Assembly: GCA_965249725.1 (NCBI GenBank)
Contig: CBDFMQ010000002.1
Span: 2,624,001 to 2,688,000, forward strand
Reading direction: 5' to 3'
Length of the DNA stretch: 64,000 nucleotides
Source of the DNA: Longimicrobiales bacterium
Lineage (GTDB): Bacteria > Gemmatimonadota > Gemmatimonadetes > Longimicrobiales > Gaopeijiaceae
The position numbers and the translations under genes were made by a program. Shown here piece by piece: positions 10,867 through 59,856 of this stretch. The first letter of the stretch is position 1. Every line of letters starts with the position of its first letter. The notes under the pieces were generated by a model. That model was not told the origin of the DNA. It saw only the letters and a program-made list of their open reading frames with translations, and did no database searches.

Positions 10867-11280
10867 TCAGACGCCCTCGACGACGGTCTCGAACTCGAGA
10901 TCCGGACGGAGGGTGTGGAGGACGCTGCAGTACGTGTCGGACGACAGCTGAATCGCGCGATCCACCTTGGGCCGCTCCTCTGCCGCCACACCTCCCAACA
11001 CGAAAGTCATACAGATCCGCCTGAAGTACCTGGGCTGATCGGGGTTCCGGTCGCCGTCGGCGCGAACCTCGAGGGAGCTCAACTCGACACGACCCTTCTG
11101 CAGAATCATCACCACGTCGATGGCCATGCAGCCCATCAGCCCCAAGAGCAGCGACTCCATCGGAGAGGGTCCGGCCTGGCTGGATCCGTCGATGGTCACC
11201 TCGGGTCCGGAACCGGAGCGACCCTCAAAGACGTCGCCCTGCCCGGTCCACCGCAGGGTGGCCTGCTTAGAAAAGGTCAT
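10867..11280 (-). CDS. OsmC family protein (YhfA-like, Cys/Cys)
   Basis: GPSPMESLLLGLMGCMAIDV and TYCSV. Confidence 0.9.
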   Translation of the reverse strand: MTFSKQATLRWTGQGDVFEGRSGSGPEVTIDGSSQAGPSPMESLLLGLMGCMAIDVVMILQKGRVELSSLEVRADGDRNPDQPRYFRRICMTFVLGGVAAEERPKVDRAIQLSSDTYCSVLHTLRPDLEFETVVEGV

Positions 11281-49765: not shown

Positions 49766-50839
49766 CTAGTCGCCGCTCACGTCCTCGGCCGAAGCGATCC
49801 CCTCCACCTCGAGCAGCCTCTGTTTCCGCCAAAGTCCGCCGCCGTACCCGGTGAGCTTACCGTCCGCCCCGATCACACGATGGCACGGTATGAGGATGGC
49901 GATCCGGTTGTCCCCGTTGGCGCGGGCGACGGCCCTTACGGCCGTGGGACGTCCGATCTCCTTCGCGATCTCACCGTAGCTCTTGGTAGTTCCAGCCGGG
50001 ATGGCCCGTAACCGAGTCCACACGTCCCGTTGGAACGAAGTGCCCGGCGTGACCAGAGGAATCCGAAACTCCGTCGCCTCGCCCCGGAAGTAGGCCTCCA
50101 GTTCACGGGCCAGGCGGTCGAACACTTGGCTCGTTCCCGGCACGAACACACAGTCGAGGTGCTTTTGGAGCCGCACGAGTTGGGTCTCAAGCATGCGTCG
50201 GTCGGCGAATTCCAGGAGGCATACGGCGTCGTCGACCGCCCCCGCCACCATGGGGCCCAATGGCGTGGGAATGCGATTCACCGTAACCACCGTGGAGTTC
50301 TTCACATCCCGTGGTGTCTGTCCGACGAAGCGCTTGAAGGCCTCGTTGAATCCACTCAGCGATTCATAACCGGTACTGAACGCCGCTCGGCTGACACGGG
50401 ACCCCTGTTGGATTTGGCCGAGAGCCAGGCCCAGTCGTCGGACCCGTGAATAGGCGTGAAAGGTCATCCCGTGGTTCGTCTGGAACCAGCGGCGAACTCT
50501 CTCCGGACTGAGCCCACGGCTGCGGAGGTCTTGATCGGTCCAGCGCCGCTCGGGCTCGTCCTCGAAGTCCCTCATGAGACCGTCGAGCCAGTTTGGTAGG
50601 GCCCCTGATGGCTCCATGGGCCGACACCGCTTGCACGGCCGGAAGCCCGCCATCAGAGCTTCGCGGGTGGTGGTATAGAAATCGACGTTCTCCCTGCGCG
50701 GCTTCTTCGCAGAACAGGTCGGGCGGCAGAAGATGCCGGTGGTGCGCACGCCCGTGAAGAACACGCCGTCATAGGACCCGTCTCGGGACAGGAAGGCGGC
50801 GATCATCTCGCCGCGGTCTGGTAGCATGTGTGTATTCAT
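49766..50839 (-). CDS. ada: Bifunctional transcriptional activator / O6-methylguanine-DNA methyltransferase
   Basis: CRPTC..RPCKRC Zn site, AraC-type HTH, PCHRV. Confidence 0.95.
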   Translation of the reverse strand: MNTHMLPDRGEMIAAFLSRDGSYDGVFFTGVRTTGIFCRPTCSAKKPRRENVDFYTTTREALMAGFRPCKRCRPMEPSGALPNWLDGLMRDFEDEPERRWTDQDLRSRGLSPERVRRWFQTNHGMTFHAYSRVRRLGLALGQIQQGSRVSRAAFSTGYESLSGFNEAFKRFVGQTPRDVKNSTVVTVNRIPTPLGPMVAGAVDDAVCLLEFADRRMLETQLVRLQKHLDCVFVPGTSQVFDRLARELEAYFRGEATEFRIPLVTPGTSFQRDVWTRLRAIPAGTTKSYGEIAKEIGRPTAVRAVARANGDNRIAILIPCHRVIGADGKLTGYGGGLWRKQRLLEVEGIASAEDVSGD

Positions 50840-51140
50840 GAACGACAATCTGGGACATCGTCATCCGGCATTCCACCGGAAAACAGACGTTGAATTCTGG
50901 GACTTCAACGGCGGTCCTGAAACCCCATGCGCCACCCCCCGTCCTACTCGAGTTCGGGCCAACAGGCTCGACCGGTTCAGGCGCTCAGTAACGAAAAGAA
51001 CGGCTTCCCGTACAATTCCGGCGAGACTAGAGGGATGGCGAACGGGGCGCCCTAGCGTTCCAGAGTTCGTTTCGGCTACACTTGGGCTCAGTCCGCACTC
51101 GGGTTCACAACACCGACCCCACGATCAGGAGTACGTTTCC

Positions 51141-53940: not shown

Positions 53941-54648
53941 ATGATCAGCACGGGAACCAGGTCGTACACACTTACGGCCCTGACCCTTCTCCTCGCCGGC
54001 TCCACCGGAGCCTGTGCGCACGTGGGTCAGGATCAGTTCGACGCGGAGGTCCAGTCCCTGCGCCGTCAGATCGAGGAGGGCGACCGGGTCAACCAGCAGG
54101 GTCTGGATGATCTGGGAAGGCGGACCGACGACCAGATGGAGGAAATCTCGGCCCGTCTCGACGGGCTGGCGCGTGGTCTCTCGACACTCCAAGGCGAGTT
54201 CGACGTCACGGTGGAGCGTCTGGAGAGCGCCGTCCGCTTCGACATGCCGGTCTACTTCGCCTTCGACGAGGCGGTTTTGCGGTCGGAGGACCTTCCGGTC
54301 CTGGACCGATTCAGCAGCGTCGTCGCCGAGTTCTACCCCCAAGCGCTAATCACTGTGGAGGGGTTCACCGATCCCGCTGGTCCGGAAGCGTACAACCGAC
54401 AGCTAGGACTACGACGGGCAGACGCGGTCCGTGGCTACCTCGTGGAGTCAGGCGGACTCGCCGAGACCAGCTTCAAGACCGTGAGTTACGGGGAAGACAC
54501 GGCTCGCCTGGTGGCACCGGGTCAGGCCGGCCGGGAAAAGGGCTGGCAGAACAGGAGAGTCGCCCTCGTCATCGAGCACCTCGGTGAGTTGAGCGCCGGC
54601 GTGGGCGCCGGTGACGTGACCGACGGGGTCGATGGAGAGTCGCACTAG
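53941..54648 (+). CDS. OmpA-like peptidoglycan-binding lipoprotein with coiled coil
   Basis: Lipobox TGAC, VYFAFD, EGFTD, YNRQLGLRRA, NRRV. Confidence 0.9.
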   Translation: MISTGTRSYTLTALTLLLAGSTGACAHVGQDQFDAEVQSLRRQIEEGDRVNQQGLDDLGRRTDDQMEEISARLDGLARGLSTLQGEFDVTVERLESAVRFDMPVYFAFDEAVLRSEDLPVLDRFSSVVAEFYPQALITVEGFTDPAGPEAYNRQLGLRRADAVRGYLVESGGLAETSFKTVSYGEDTARLVAPGQAGREKGWQNRRVALVIEHLGELSAGVGAGDVTDGVDGESH

Positions 54649-55143
54649 GCCGGAGCTACGATCTCCAACTCGGTGGTGATGTCGACGCATCCCTCGATCG
54701 TTCTGTAGACCGGGCAGAATCCGTGATGCACTTCGTGTGAGCGCCGGGCGGTTTCCTCGTCCGCGGCGTCCGCAACCAGGTGGTAGAGAACATGGATCCG
54801 CTTGATCACGAGGACGCCGTCCTCCTTTTCGACTTCACCTCTCACGTCTGAAATGAGCCGTCCGTCGCTAGCCGATATCCCGCGCGCCTCCAGCGCGCCT
54901 CCGAGGGTCCCGGTCAGTCAGCCACCGGCGGCGGCCATGACGTGGTCGAGCGTCGTCGCGAACTCCTCCTCCGGCTCGACCCCATAGTGCTCGGCGATGG
55001 CGCCGTGCACGCCGAACATCGTCGGCTGGGGGGGTGGCGGGTAGGTAGGCTCGGCGTACCGGGCCCTTCATGCGTTCGATGCGGATGTCCGCCGTGTAGA
55101 CCACGTCACCCATCGGGGCTTCTCCCATCGGGGCTTCTCCCAT
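54645..55143 (-). CDS. OsmC/Ohr family protein, candidate selenoprotein (in-frame TGA 54918-54920; +1 frameshift at G7 55028-55034)
   Basis: Reconstructed ..ATTLDHVMAAAGG-U-LTGTLGGALEARG..HGFCPVYRTI; alternative starts 55113/55128/55143. Confidence 0.8.
54882..54898 (-). promoter_or_regulatory. Putative bacterial SECIS element
   Basis: GCGCGC-UGGAG-GCGCGC hairpin, loop 25 nt 3' of the UGA, G at loop position 2. Confidence 0.6.
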
Positions 55144-55156
55144 TGTGGCTTCTCCC
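55109..55156. repeat. 15-bp tandem repeat x3 duplicating RBS+ATG (MGEAP)
   Basis: Minus strand GGGAGAAGCCNCRATG units. Confidence 0.9.
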
Positions 55157-55297
55157 TTGATTGAGGTGCCCGATGGTATCGGCGGACCACGGGCGTGAGC
55201 AAGCGACGGGGGAACCTCCGCCCGACCTGGGATCGTATGTAAGGGTGCAGAGCCAGGGTCGTTGGCGAACCGGCAGTTGATCCGAGGGGGGTGCGGC

Positions 55298-56203
55298 ATG
55301 AGCGAGCGCGGTGGGGTCCCCATCATCTGGTCTTCCCGATACGAGGTGGACATCGGAAAGCACGTCTTTCCCGTGGAGAAGTACCGGCTGGTGAAGGATC
55401 GACTCAAAGAGACCGGCTGGCTCGAGAGGGCCCGGCTCGAATCACCGGAGCCGGCCTCGGAAGAGGCGATCCTCAGAGTCCATACGCCCGCCTATTGGGA
55501 GAAGATCACGACGGGGACCTTCACGTCCATGGAGGAACGTATCCTGGAGGTGCCGTTCTCTGATCGGCTGAGAGAAGCGTCCGTCCTGTGCGCCGGAGGA
55601 ACCACTCAGGCCGGACGATTGGCCGCCGAAGAGGGAGTAGCCGTTCACCTAGGCGGGGGATTCCATCATGCCTTCGCCGATCACGGCGAGGGCTTCTGTC
55701 TGCTCAACGACATCGCCATCGCGGCGGCCGGGCTGTTGGCGGAGGGTGTCGTCGAGCGCATCGCGGTCGTCGATCTCGATGTCCATCACGGGAATGGCAC
55801 CGCGTCCATCTTCGCGGACGAACCGCGGGTCTTCACGTTTTCCATGCATCACCAATGGAATTACCCGGCCCTGAAACCGGCTGGCGATCTGGACGTCGGC
55901 CTGGAAGATGGAGTGGGAGATGAAGAGTATCTCGGGCTTCTCGGGGAGCACCTGCCCCGCGTCCTCGATGAACATCAACCCCAGCTGATCCTCTATCTCG
56001 CCGGCGCCGACCCGTACGAGGCCGATCAGCTCGGAGGGCTGGCACTCACGAAGGAGGGCTTGAGAGCCAGGGATGAGCGGGTGCTGACGGTGGCCCGGGA
56101 TGCCGGCGTCGGCGTGGCGATCACCCTTGCCGGGGGATACGCCATTCGACCCGCGGATACCGTGGCGATTCATTGCGGAACGGTGGAAGCGGCTCTGTCC
56201 TGA
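55298..56203 (+). CDS. Histone deacetylase family protein
   Basis: GGGFHHA, GFCLLND, DLDVHHGNG, AGAD, GGY. Confidence 0.93.
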   Translation: MSERGGVPIIWSSRYEVDIGKHVFPVEKYRLVKDRLKETGWLERARLESPEPASEEAILRVHTPAYWEKITTGTFTSMEERILEVPFSDRLREASVLCAGGTTQAGRLAAEEGVAVHLGGGFHHAFADHGEGFCLLNDIAIAAAGLLAEGVVERIAVVDLDVHHGNGTASIFADEPRVFTFSMHHQWNYPALKPAGDLDVGLEDGVGDEEYLGLLGEHLPRVLDEHQPQLILYLAGADPYEADQLGGLALTKEGLRARDERVLTVARDAGVGVAITLAGGYAIRPADTVAIHCGTVEAALS

Positions 56204-57726: not shown

Positions 57727-59856
57727 CTACTCGAACGACCCAGGAACCGCCTCCTCCAACTCGGTCGCCAACTCCTCCGCCGAACGCATCTTCGAGAGAT
57801 CCAACTCGTAGTCGGGCAACTCTTGGGGTTGGAGCTTCTCGACCAACTCACGAGTCTCCCGTCCGGAAAGACCCATGTCCTTGAGATTCTCAGGCGTGAG
57901 GGCCGACGCATCCGCCCTGGCCCGCACACCCCCTTCGTCACCCTCGAGTAGATGCCGCAGAGCAGTCATCTCGGCTCGGCTCATGGGCTCCGCGCCCACG
58001 TTGTAGTCGAGCCACGCCTCATAGCTGAGGGGGGCTACACGCTTCAGCATTCCCGCCATCACCCGGGCAAACTCCTGGATCTCCCACTGGGCGTGAGGAT
58101 CGGCCCGAAGCGTCAGGAAGTGGAAGAGGTTGTGAAGATCGATCTTCCAATACCACTGCGTATACGTGGAGAGAGGCAGATCGATGCGGGCGAGTTCGCG
58201 CGCGACCTCCTCCTCGACCATCCAGCGGTACCCCTGCGACGCCTCCCTCCTGACCCGCTCCCAGTGCGCCACCGTCTTCTCGTACAACTCCACCGGAGCC
58301 GGTTCGGACTGCCGCCCCTGACTGTTTTCGGCGCTCTGGAGCGAGAAGTGCTCCAGGTCCGGCTTGTAGAAGAGGAGCGGCATCAAGGAATAACGGCCGC
58401 TGTACTCGTTTACTGAGTTGTGGGTGACGATGCCGTTGGCGATGAAGTTGTGAAACGGACCCTCGACCTCAAGGTCATAGGTCTCGCACACACCGACATA
58501 CTCGAAACGCTCGACACGAACGAGCCGGGTGTTGCTGAGCTTGTTCCACGGCACCCGCGGCCGCCTCTGCCACTCTGTTCGGGTCGGGCCGCCGCCGAGG
58601 CGTTCGACGTACTCCAGCTCGTTCCCCGTGACTTCTCGATGGCATGGGGCACAGAGGGTCGTGAGGTTCGTTACTTCCCTGGCCTGCGATTCATCGGCCC
58701 AAACCGGGACGATGTGATGGCAGTGCAGCTCAGCGGCCCTCTGAGCGCAGAGCTGGCAAGTCCATCCATTCGCAGAGTGTACACGGGAGGCGACCTGAGT
58801 CGTCCATCGACCGATGGCGTCCCGCTCCGGAGAAATCCCGCCACGCCAGAAGTTGGAGGCGGACCCGCCCCGGGCCCGTCGGTTCGCTTCGATCCAATCA
58901 TCGGATAGTTGCCGAGGCCCGAGCTCATACGTCTGATCCTTGTTCCACGGTGCCTCACCTTCAGAGAAACGTCCGCGTTCCGGATCCGTGAGTTGATGGC
59001 GTGTCAGCCACTTCCTGATGGTGTGACATGAGACTCCGCAATCCTCCGCGATGTCGCCGATACTCCGTTTCTTCTCGGTGTACTGTCGGTCCAGCCACTC
59101 CCTGTCCTGATAGAGGGCGGGAGCCTCGGCAACTAGGCCGTTCACGTGAACGTAGTAGTCGCCCTCCCTCCACACGGCGCGGCCACCCTTCTCCTCGAGC
59201 CCGGCGGCTTGATGCAGGGTGCCCCAGCCATCAACGAATCTGAAACGGTGGTCCGCCGTGGCCGTGATCTCCTTGCCGTCCGCCAGGACCATCTTGAACA
59301 CGTGCTTGGGGCCGTTCTTAAAGACATCGACGACCCGCGTATGCTTGATGCGGCCCGTCTCCTCATCCATCTGACGGAGCCGCATCGCCATCACGCGGGC
59401 GCGACGACGATAGGGATTCCGTTGCTTGTCAGGTCGATGTCGATTGACGGTCGGTTGGAACCGCCGCCATACATCCTCGATAGGCAGCTTATATAGCTGG
59501 TTCCCCCTCCGGCGCACGCCACCCGGCAAGTCGAAGTAGATCTCGGTGCCCTCCGCCAAACAGGCCGTGCGATGTCGTATCCACTGGCGTGCCACGAACA
59601 TCGGCATGGCACAGTGAAATTTGAGCTCGACCATCTCGCTGGGCGTCGTATGGTGGTGGCGGCGCAGATACCGGATCAACCCACGCGTTTGGCTCACCTT
59701 GCGGGTGCCGTATCCGTAGCTGACGCGCGCGGCGCGCTCCACATCCTCGTCGGTACCCATGTAGTCGACCAGGGCCACGAATCCGTGGTCGAGGACCGGA
59801 AAGTACCCCCCCACGATCTCCTCGGTGGCGGGGTTGGTGGGTCTCTTCGTTTCCAT
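57727..59856 (-). CDS. thyX: FAD-dependent thymidylate synthase, intein-containing
   Basis: AARVSY, HTTPSE, RQWIRHRTA|..|SVNEYSGRY, ELARIDLP, HAQWEI. Confidence 0.95.
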   Translation of the reverse strand: METKRPTNPATEEIVGGYFPVLDHGFVALVDYMGTDEDVERAARVSYGYGTRKVSQTRGLIRYLRRHHHTTPSEMVELKFHCAMPMFVARQWIRHRTACLAEGTEIYFDLPGGVRRRGNQLYKLPIEDVWRRFQPTVNRHRPDKQRNPYRRRARVMAMRLRQMDEETGRIKHTRVVDVFKNGPKHVFKMVLADGKEITATADHRFRFVDGWGTLHQAAGLEEKGGRAVWREGDYYVHVNGLVAEAPALYQDREWLDRQYTEKKRSIGDIAEDCGVSCHTIRKWLTRHQLTDPERGRFSEGEAPWNKDQTYELGPRQLSDDWIEANRRARGGSASNFWRGGISPERDAIGRWTTQVASRVHSANGWTCQLCAQRAAELHCHHIVPVWADESQAREVTNLTTLCAPCHREVTGNELEYVERLGGGPTRTEWQRRPRVPWNKLSNTRLVRVERFEYVGVCETYDLEVEGPFHNFIANGIVTHNSVNEYSGRYSLMPLLFYKPDLEHFSLQSAENSQGRQSEPAPVELYEKTVAHWERVRREASQGYRWMVEEEVARELARIDLPLSTYTQWYWKIDLHNLFHFLTLRADPHAQWEIQEFARVMAGMLKRVAPLSYEAWLDYNVGAEPMSRAEMTALRHLLEGDEGGVRARADASALTPENLKDMGLSGRETRELVEKLQPQELPDYELDLSKMRSAEELATELEEAVPGSFE
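58417..59562 (-). mobile_element. Intein (382 aa) with HNH homing endonuclease
   Basis: Block A CLAEGT, block B TADHRF, blocks F/G TYDLEV..HNFIANGIVTHN followed by Ser; internal CQLC..HHIVP..NLTTLCAPCH. Confidence 0.93.

Follow-up and report, generated by a model that had tools for sequence, protein, structure and literature searches.

How should a bacterial gene be read when it is broken twice, once by a change of frame at a short run of G and once by an in-frame TGA codon at the position of a redox-active cysteine? The question is raised by a minus-strand locus (54645–55113) in a 64,000-nucleotide stretch of a Longimicrobiales genome (positions 2,624,001 to 2,688,000 of contig CBDFMQ010000002.1, assembly GCA_965249725.1), referred to here as the window; unless a contig is named, coordinates are those of the window. 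The initial annotation of this DNA had found the open reading frames fragmented and had noted that dropping one base of the run and reading through the TGA gives a single protein of about 155 residues, a reconstruction which we reproduced. The explanation that best accounts for the observations jointly, and which we regard as likely, is that the gene encodes a stand-alone, 155-residue protein of the OsmC/Ohr fold in which the UGA is recoded as selenocysteine (Sec) and whose function is probably peroxide reduction. The parts of this explanation are of unequal strength and are considered separately below.

Organization of the locus and fold of the protein

With six G in the run the gene has 155 codons; as assembled it occupies two frames. 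The ATG start codon (55113–55111) opens a stretch of 26 codons that ends at the run of seven G (55028–55034, C7 on the coding strand), which has one base more than in other samples and shifts the frame after codon 26. This short upstream part includes the codon for Arg20 (55054–55056), a residue which is Arg in 168/168 loci and is a candidate counterpart, judged from sequence, of the catalytic Arg of Ohr. Downstream lie the in-frame TGA in the column of the peroxidatic Cys (54918–54920, putatively Sec65), the codon for the Cys at the resolving position in a CP motif (54714–54716; Cys in all 168 aligned non-redundant Sec loci) and the stop codon, itself a TGA (54647–54645). Upstream, three tandem 15-nt units (55110–55154, minus strand) each carry a Shine–Dalgarno-like GGAGA followed by an in-frame ATG, and the last of them provides the start common to relatives. 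The initial annotation had extended the locus to 55143; its gene body stands, while this end takes in two extra in-frame units. There is one such unit in the relatives inspected and there are two in the contig of sequencing run X11; on these sequences, unit copy number appears to vary within the species.

The body of the protein matches the PF02566 OsmC profile with 46.1 bits (cut-off 27.5). The AlphaFold model of a relative, P0033 (pLDDT 95.4), whose database sequence has Trp at the Sec site, retrieves OsmC/Ohr structures with Foldseek, the best being 2onf (E 1e-9, TM 0.73). The profile score and the fold of the model together place the protein in the OsmC/Ohr superfamily. Its closest named relatives are from metagenome-assembled genomes of Longimicrobiales and other Gemmatimonadota, with up to 89% identity; the identity to the ortholog of a genome of the same genus, G002, is 89%.

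The gene is flanked by a convergent OmpA-domain gene and a divergent gene of the histone-deacetylase family. The former (53941–54648, plus strand) has a coiled-coil-like N-terminal region and its stop codon overlaps that of the OsmC-like gene by 4 nt. Among 169 loci there is no recurring gene neighbourhood within about 900 nt, many of the flanks being short, and the largest cluster of neighbours covers eight loci. No match to a sigma-70 promoter or to a terminator was found within 54400–55400, and the sequencing runs listed as containing the sequence include no RNA run, which is neutral as to expression. Elsewhere in the window, a 709-aa ORF (57727–59856, minus strand) resembles a ThyX that is split by an intein carrying an endonuclease of the HNH type, and the ORF at 49766–50848 (minus strand) resembles a fusion of Ada-type metal-binding, AraC and methyltransferase domains, both on motifs recognized by eye.

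The genome, G000 (4.16 Mb in three contigs, 95.8% complete), contains two further genes of interest. An intact Sec paralog on another contig (C1:391872-392228, locus L095) has a TGA and the same downstream hairpin and is 34% identical to the present protein; it belongs to a distinct sub-clade, the LPVDY type, which is present in many relatives alongside the first gene. The conventional Cys/Cys OsmC paralog which had been pointed out at 10867–11280 is real. It lies on the minus strand, outside the selenoprotein clade, and is a distant YhfA-type gene closest to the NF008009 model (91 bits, below the cut-off of 138).

The in-frame TGA codon

The codon at this column was read from the DNA of 204 aligned loci, duplicates included. 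It is TGA in 194, a Cys codon in nine, GGC in one and TGG in none. The nine Cys-codon loci (L230–L238, verified at the DNA level) had been fetched because they have no internal stop. When made non-redundant at 90% nucleotide identity, the TGA loci number 169. Relatives and GTDB contigs supplied 80 loci, of which 78 have TGA and the two others are distant Cys OsmCs with TGC; a metagenome search in which a Trp-type protein headed the query alignment gave TGA in 80/80 loci (the best 80 of 588). The codon is also unchanged in the contigs of four sequencing runs, each from a different study. The in-frame UGA thus aligns to Cys in homologs, both at the DNA level (the nine loci) and in 33 of 120 database proteins.

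These same 120 database proteins raise the main alternative, that the UGA is a true stop or a Trp codon and the gene two peptides, a pseudogene or a Trp variant. At the column, 69 have Trp, 33 Cys, three Gly, two Leu and one Ala, and 12 do not cover it; many full-length entries show Trp, and GenBank and JGI annotate pieces of 66 and about 90 residues. Against a Trp codon, TGA is a normal stop in this genome, since the gene itself ends in one, and TGG is absent from all 204 loci, which include the 80 nearest to the Trp-type query. The clusters of two Trp-type proteins moreover include 66-residue members that end at the UGA, and one of them contains the adjacent accessions MCH8873500.1 (66 aa) and MCH8873499.1 (90 aa). 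The rejection of Trp at this column rests on the codon counts and on these clusters. Against a true stop, both halves are in frame with each other and conserved across phyla, and Cys stands in for TGA where selA was not found. We consider a stop or Trp reading extremely improbable, and that the UGA is very likely read as selenocysteine. For the Trp entries, whose exact records are untraced to DNA, the best explanation is that gene callers had applied a TGA=Trp code to short contigs. Both Trp and Gly (3/120) at the Sec site are consistent with the choice of TGA-reassigning codes on such contigs, and Trp/Gly columns of this kind in database homologs could be mined for other hidden selenoproteins.

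A conserved hairpin downstream of the TGA

The hairpin that had been described after the UGA, GCGCGC-UGGAG-GCGCGC with its loop 25 nt downstream, is present as stated (54882–54898, minus strand). It spans +20 to +36 and is made up of six G-C pairs plus a closing U-G. A 2026 review (PMC13188914) describes the bacterial SECIS consensus as having a loop of 3–9 nt, a stem of 4–16 bp, a G in the first two loop positions, a spacing of 16–37 nt and a minimum free energy of at most -7.5 kcal/mol. The present hairpin, with a loop of 3–5 nt, a stem of 6–7 bp, a spacing of 25–26 nt and -12.8 kcal/mol, agrees with it on every count. Taken alone this is modest evidence for Sec, because 1,488 of the 107,540 TGA triplets of the genome, in any frame (1.4%), are followed by a comparable hairpin, defined as one with at least six Watson–Crick pairs and an early loop G.

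Its conservation is far beyond chance and the hairpin is under selection. Among 58 codons scored over the 169 loci, the five with the lowest synonymous entropy (+7, +8, +9, +11 and +12) all lie in the hairpin and are all of its scored codons, with 0.26–1.11 bits against 1.29–2.11 elsewhere. All six pairs are intact in 154/169 non-redundant Sec loci, compared with 3.8% expected for the same amino acids with background codon use, and the six-pair stem is complete in none of the nine Cys loci; these stem counts are inflated by relatedness, the nine Cys loci coming from six genomes of one clade. In nine loci an A-U pair replaces G-C at +24/+32, at the cost of an Ala-to-Val change. The stem is incomplete in this register in 15/169 Sec loci. 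Three deep-branching TGA members (L239, L240 and L091) do not form the family hairpin downstream in this register and may use a different SECIS.

Selenocysteine machinery

Selenocysteine at the UGA implies, as the initial annotation had pointed out, that the genome has the machinery for its insertion. It does: selA, selB, selC (tRNA-Sec, 68 bits) and selD are present, all above curated cut-offs, and selD has an in-frame TGA of its own followed by a hairpin. The TGA gene is present in 27 of 60 relatives, and selA accompanies it in 25. The two others are G010, which has selB and selC but no selA, and G009 (78% complete), in which searches for selA, selB and selC found nothing. One family, f2 (12 genomes), has neither the TGA gene nor selA. 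Genomes of other phyla with the TGA gene have selA in 5/5 cases.

In Actinomycetota, selA is present in 44/45 genomes with the TGA form, G999 being the one without a match, and in 0/6 genomes with the Cys form. This co-occurrence is weaker than it appears because the background of selA is high: 14/20 Actinomycetota genomes without the gene have it (13/19 leaving out the unpublished G766). The earlier reading of the UGA as Sec is supported by these results taken with those above. What had been named as fatal to it, homologs with a residue other than Cys such as Trp, a genome without selABCD or a TGA not borne out by reads, was examined and nothing refuted it: the homologous loci have TGA or Cys codons and no TGG, and the contigs of four studies keep the TGA.

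The frameshift at the run of seven G

The run had been singled out for a check in sequencing data, and contigs of other samples differ there. Those of runs X4, X8 and X11, from three studies, have one base fewer at 55028, hence six G, and are otherwise identical at the site. Run X1 has a single contig across the site, with seven G at a depth of 3.4, and none of its seven records is a six-G contig. Two more runs of the same sample as X1 (X2 and X3) hold 0.99 of the words, compared with 0.96 in the six-G run X4, a hint that seven G occur repeatedly in that sample. Wherever a relative gives an N-terminal hit, its N-terminal 26 residues share the frame of the body; they are out of frame only here. 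Four relatives were inspected at this site, among them both of the same genus, and none has the homopolymer.

Single-base indels occur elsewhere in the genome. A comparison with G002 gave eight frame switches, of which three hits to one repeated element, one stop-ridden match and the present locus were set aside. This leaves three other genes, at four sites, among about 175 ORFs compared, an approximate denominator that includes antisense shadow ORFs and repeats. The indels split genes that are intact in G002 (C3:2640755, at about 16755 in the window, and C3:1701932, 2793612 and 2794040) and are possibly residual assembly errors. Lesions are also seen in relatives: the ortholog in another genome of the genus, G001 (L015, G001:C2:29726-30100), has a premature TAA 30 codons past the Sec codon, so that the gene carries a lesion in two of the three genomes of this genus, and another locus, L213, has an extra TAG within its match.

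Two explanations of the extra G carry most of the weight. We put at about even the chance that it is a real slipped-strand allele, inactivating the copy in one strain and buffered by the Sec paralog on C1. The seven G of X1 and the high word shares of X2 and X3 argue for it, as do the absence of the run from relatives, which would make it a recent mutable tract, the premature TAA in G001 and the intact state of the C1 paralog. On the other side, coverage is shallow, the assembly itself may have been made from X1, contigs cannot tell a systematic homopolymer error from an allele, and the rest of the gene, 89% identical to that of G002, is free of decay. It is quite conceivable, at somewhat less than an even chance, that the strain's gene is intact and the extra G arose as an error in sequencing or assembly; this accords with the otherwise identical six-G contigs of three other studies, with the other single-base indels of the genome and with the homopolymeric nature of the site, and is opposed by the same observations on X1, X2 and X3. 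A programmed or phase-variable switch is very unlikely. Run length differs between samples and the copy number of the adjacent 15-nt repeat varies too, but the four relatives inspected have no run there, all relatives that give an N-terminal hit are in frame, and six or seven bases are short for a contingency tract. The programmed frameshift in particular is unsupported, the relatives being in frame and without a run at the site.

Were the extra base real, translation would give either an 81-residue peptide read out of frame or a product restarted at Met31, which would be without the invariant Tyr6 and Arg20. The working gene of this type would then be the paralog on C1, whose Sec frame is intact. 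Because the present copy is frameshifted, an ortholog is the better object of study.

Predicted active site and proposed activity

Residues other than Sec are invariant or nearly so (numbered from the Sec position): Arg at -45 (168/168), His at -29 (165/169), Asp at -9 (169/169) and Cys at +68. The residue at +3 is Gly in 169/169 loci and that at +4 Thr in 168/169. In Xylella Ohr the catalytic set consists of Cys61, Cys125, Arg19 and Glu51 (PMC5962072). Compared by sequence spacing alone, the invariant Arg at -45 is close to Arg19, which is at -42 from Cys61. Ohr loci were sought for a profile comparison of the catalytic Arg and found in 0/121 genomes. The Glu of Ohr is absent in register: position -10 has Leu in 145, Ile in 12 and Val in 12 of the 169 loci.

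We propose that SelB would read the conserved hairpin 20–36 nt downstream and that the UGA would thereby be recoded as Sec. The protein would then reduce peroxides by cycling between a selenolate and a selenenyl-sulfide with the C-terminal Cys. Sec65, Cys133, the invariant Arg20 and the invariant Asp56 may replace the Cys/Cys/Arg/Glu of Ohr; re-reduction may be carried out by a dithiol donor such as lipoylated proteins, and by analogy with OsmC/Ohr the protein would be a homodimer. The small OsmC-fold enzyme probably carries out antioxidant redox chemistry, and we lean slightly towards peroxide reduction as its main activity.

The initial annotation had placed the UGA at the peroxidatic Cys position, by comparison with OsmC/Ohr peroxidases. 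Both redox positions are indeed there; the term peroxidase itself is a prediction, and the Ohr Glu at -10 is not conserved. It is possible, if somewhat doubtful, that Sec is real and the protein not mainly a peroxidase but another selenol/thiol oxidoreductase, or one that handles metal or sulfur through its His, Asp, Sec and Cys. The missing Glu, the conserved His and Asp and a family-specific helix fit such a function, as do scores far below the cut-offs of the OsmC (TIGR03562, 25.3 versus 85.8 bits) and Ohr (TIGR03561, 13.6 versus 88.85 bits) models and the absence of a conserved neighbourhood pointing to oxidative stress (largest cluster 8/169 loci). Against it, the protein retains the two redox positions of the OsmC/Ohr fold, the invariant Arg is close in spacing to its putative Ohr counterpart, and metal or sulfur genes were not identified as recurring neighbours, the clusters having been counted and not annotated.

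Distribution and direction of change

Unselected samples of three phyla were searched for the gene; within them the TGA position was checked in DNA for the fetched loci, 30 from Acidobacteriota and seven from Chloroflexota/Actinomycetota. It was found in 46/301 Acidobacteriota genomes, where 50/50 matches have an internal TGA, and in 13/301 Chloroflexota genomes, where 13/13 do. In Actinomycetota, 52/401 genomes gave 56 matches, of which 46 have TGA and nine Cys and one is a fragment; the TGA forms occur in 46/401 genomes.

With NF041052 loci and one Cys OsmC as the root, the early branches of the tree are Sec without exception and the Cys forms are nested in a clade of mostly Sec rows with a support of 99/95. 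When the hairpin columns were dropped, monophyly of the Sec forms alone was rejected (p-AU 0.023) and a single Cys clade was not (p-AU 0.13). The tree has 37 hand-chosen rows with groups named after seeing an earlier tree, its root rests on distant outgroups, and six of its 13 Cys rows are without a DNA check. This phylogeny suggests at least one reversion from Sec to Cys in a family that appears to be Sec-dominant.

On balance we favour, with some reserve, the view that these genes form an uncatalogued second family of OsmC-fold selenoproteins, common in Gemmatimonadota, Acidobacteriota, Actinomycetota and Chloroflexota. It would be ancestrally Sec, with reversion to Cys accompanying loss of the machinery. 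Its active site would be of a non-Ohr kind, built from Arg, His, Asp, Sec and Cys, and the peptide GGALEAR would be dictated by its near-invariant SECIS. As a general rule, Cys homologs far outnumber Sec forms. Reversion from Sec to Cys is rare in bacteria according to the 2026 review (PMC13188914). If true, the proposed history would run counter to both, and would add to the few candidate bacterial reversions in proteins other than FdhA and SelD. With matched Sec and Cys forms that follow the presence or absence of selA, the family would also be a direct test case for why Sec is kept. In databases the gene takes the form of two fragments or of a Trp variant, and the clade is missed by the NCBIfam selenoprotein model. 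The selenoproteomes of abundant soil and sediment bacteria have therefore probably been undercounted.

Relationship to known OsmC-type families

OsmC-like selenoproteins have been known since 2005, when members with a UxxT motif were predicted by Zhang, Fomenko and Gladyshev (PMC1088965), and they were later counted in the GOS data (PMC2398784) and tabulated as a family (PMC1976440). The initial annotation was right that such proteins had been predicted before; the present gene belongs to a separate clade and not to the catalogued family. The 2022 and 2026 reviews (PMC9312934; PMC13188914) give one OsmC-like selenoprotein family, the latter treating proteins with the same domain and a different Sec motif as distinct subfamilies, as the present clade would be. 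In the deep-Sep supplement (PMC12013277) the family is represented by a protein with ULLTN, which on visual comparison is similar to the NF041052 loci fetched here. A description of the present clade was not found in the literature searched, whose scope stopped short of the BSepDB family table, Haft and Tolstoy 2025 and Deng et al. 2026; no mention of OsmC was found in the BSepDB main text (PMC13326102) or in the Haft and Gwadz preprint. The iterative tblastn of BSepDB might have picked up members of the clade and listed them under the existing family name.

The known family, NF041052 (OsmC_like_Se; representative MCS5647933.1), shares with the present proteins the PF02566 fold, the C-terminal Cys, a downstream hairpin and Sec at the homologous N-terminal redox Cys, the two Sec positions being directly aligned in BLAST. 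The differences are nevertheless considerable. The motif is U-x-x-G-T here and ULLTQ or UEMTQ in NF041052 loci, an HGxIAEHY helix is extra here, and the SECIS sequence differs. The intact ortholog of G002 scores 15 bits against the NF041052 model (cut-off 95) and the body encoded in the window gives no hit; a search of G000 with the model returned neither Sec gene at E up to 1, and five members used as tblastn queries missed both at E up to 5. The best BLAST matches are weak (E 6e-4 or worse among 156 proteins), mostly with 24–35% identity. Two of the eight NF041052 loci (L224 and L225) were left out of later comparisons. In trees the two groups are separate, with supports of 99/94 and 100/99 and of 100/98 and 100/100. 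The score of 15 versus 95 bits, the Gly at +3, the weak BLAST matches and the separate clade rule out membership in NF041052.

Ohr/OsmC peroxidases have the same fold (TM 0.6–0.73) and the two redox positions, with the invariant Arg of the N-terminal sheet region as a putative further match, at an identity of only 11–18%. Here Sec replaces the peroxidatic Cys and, compared with Ohr, a hydrophobic residue occupies the position of the Glu and an Asp lies one residue later. With YhfA/COG1765-type proteins (NF008009; 1ML8), which are without the Arg/Glu pair and biochemically uncharacterised (PMC8945050), the present protein has in common the two redox positions and, in the alignment with 1ml8, an acidic residue at -9 instead of -10. 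It differs from them in its invariant Arg and His and its Sec, and has no match to NF008009 at E 0.1. UGA recoding and this kind of OsmC-like protein were already known; the clade described here appears to be uncatalogued, widespread and systematically mis-annotated.
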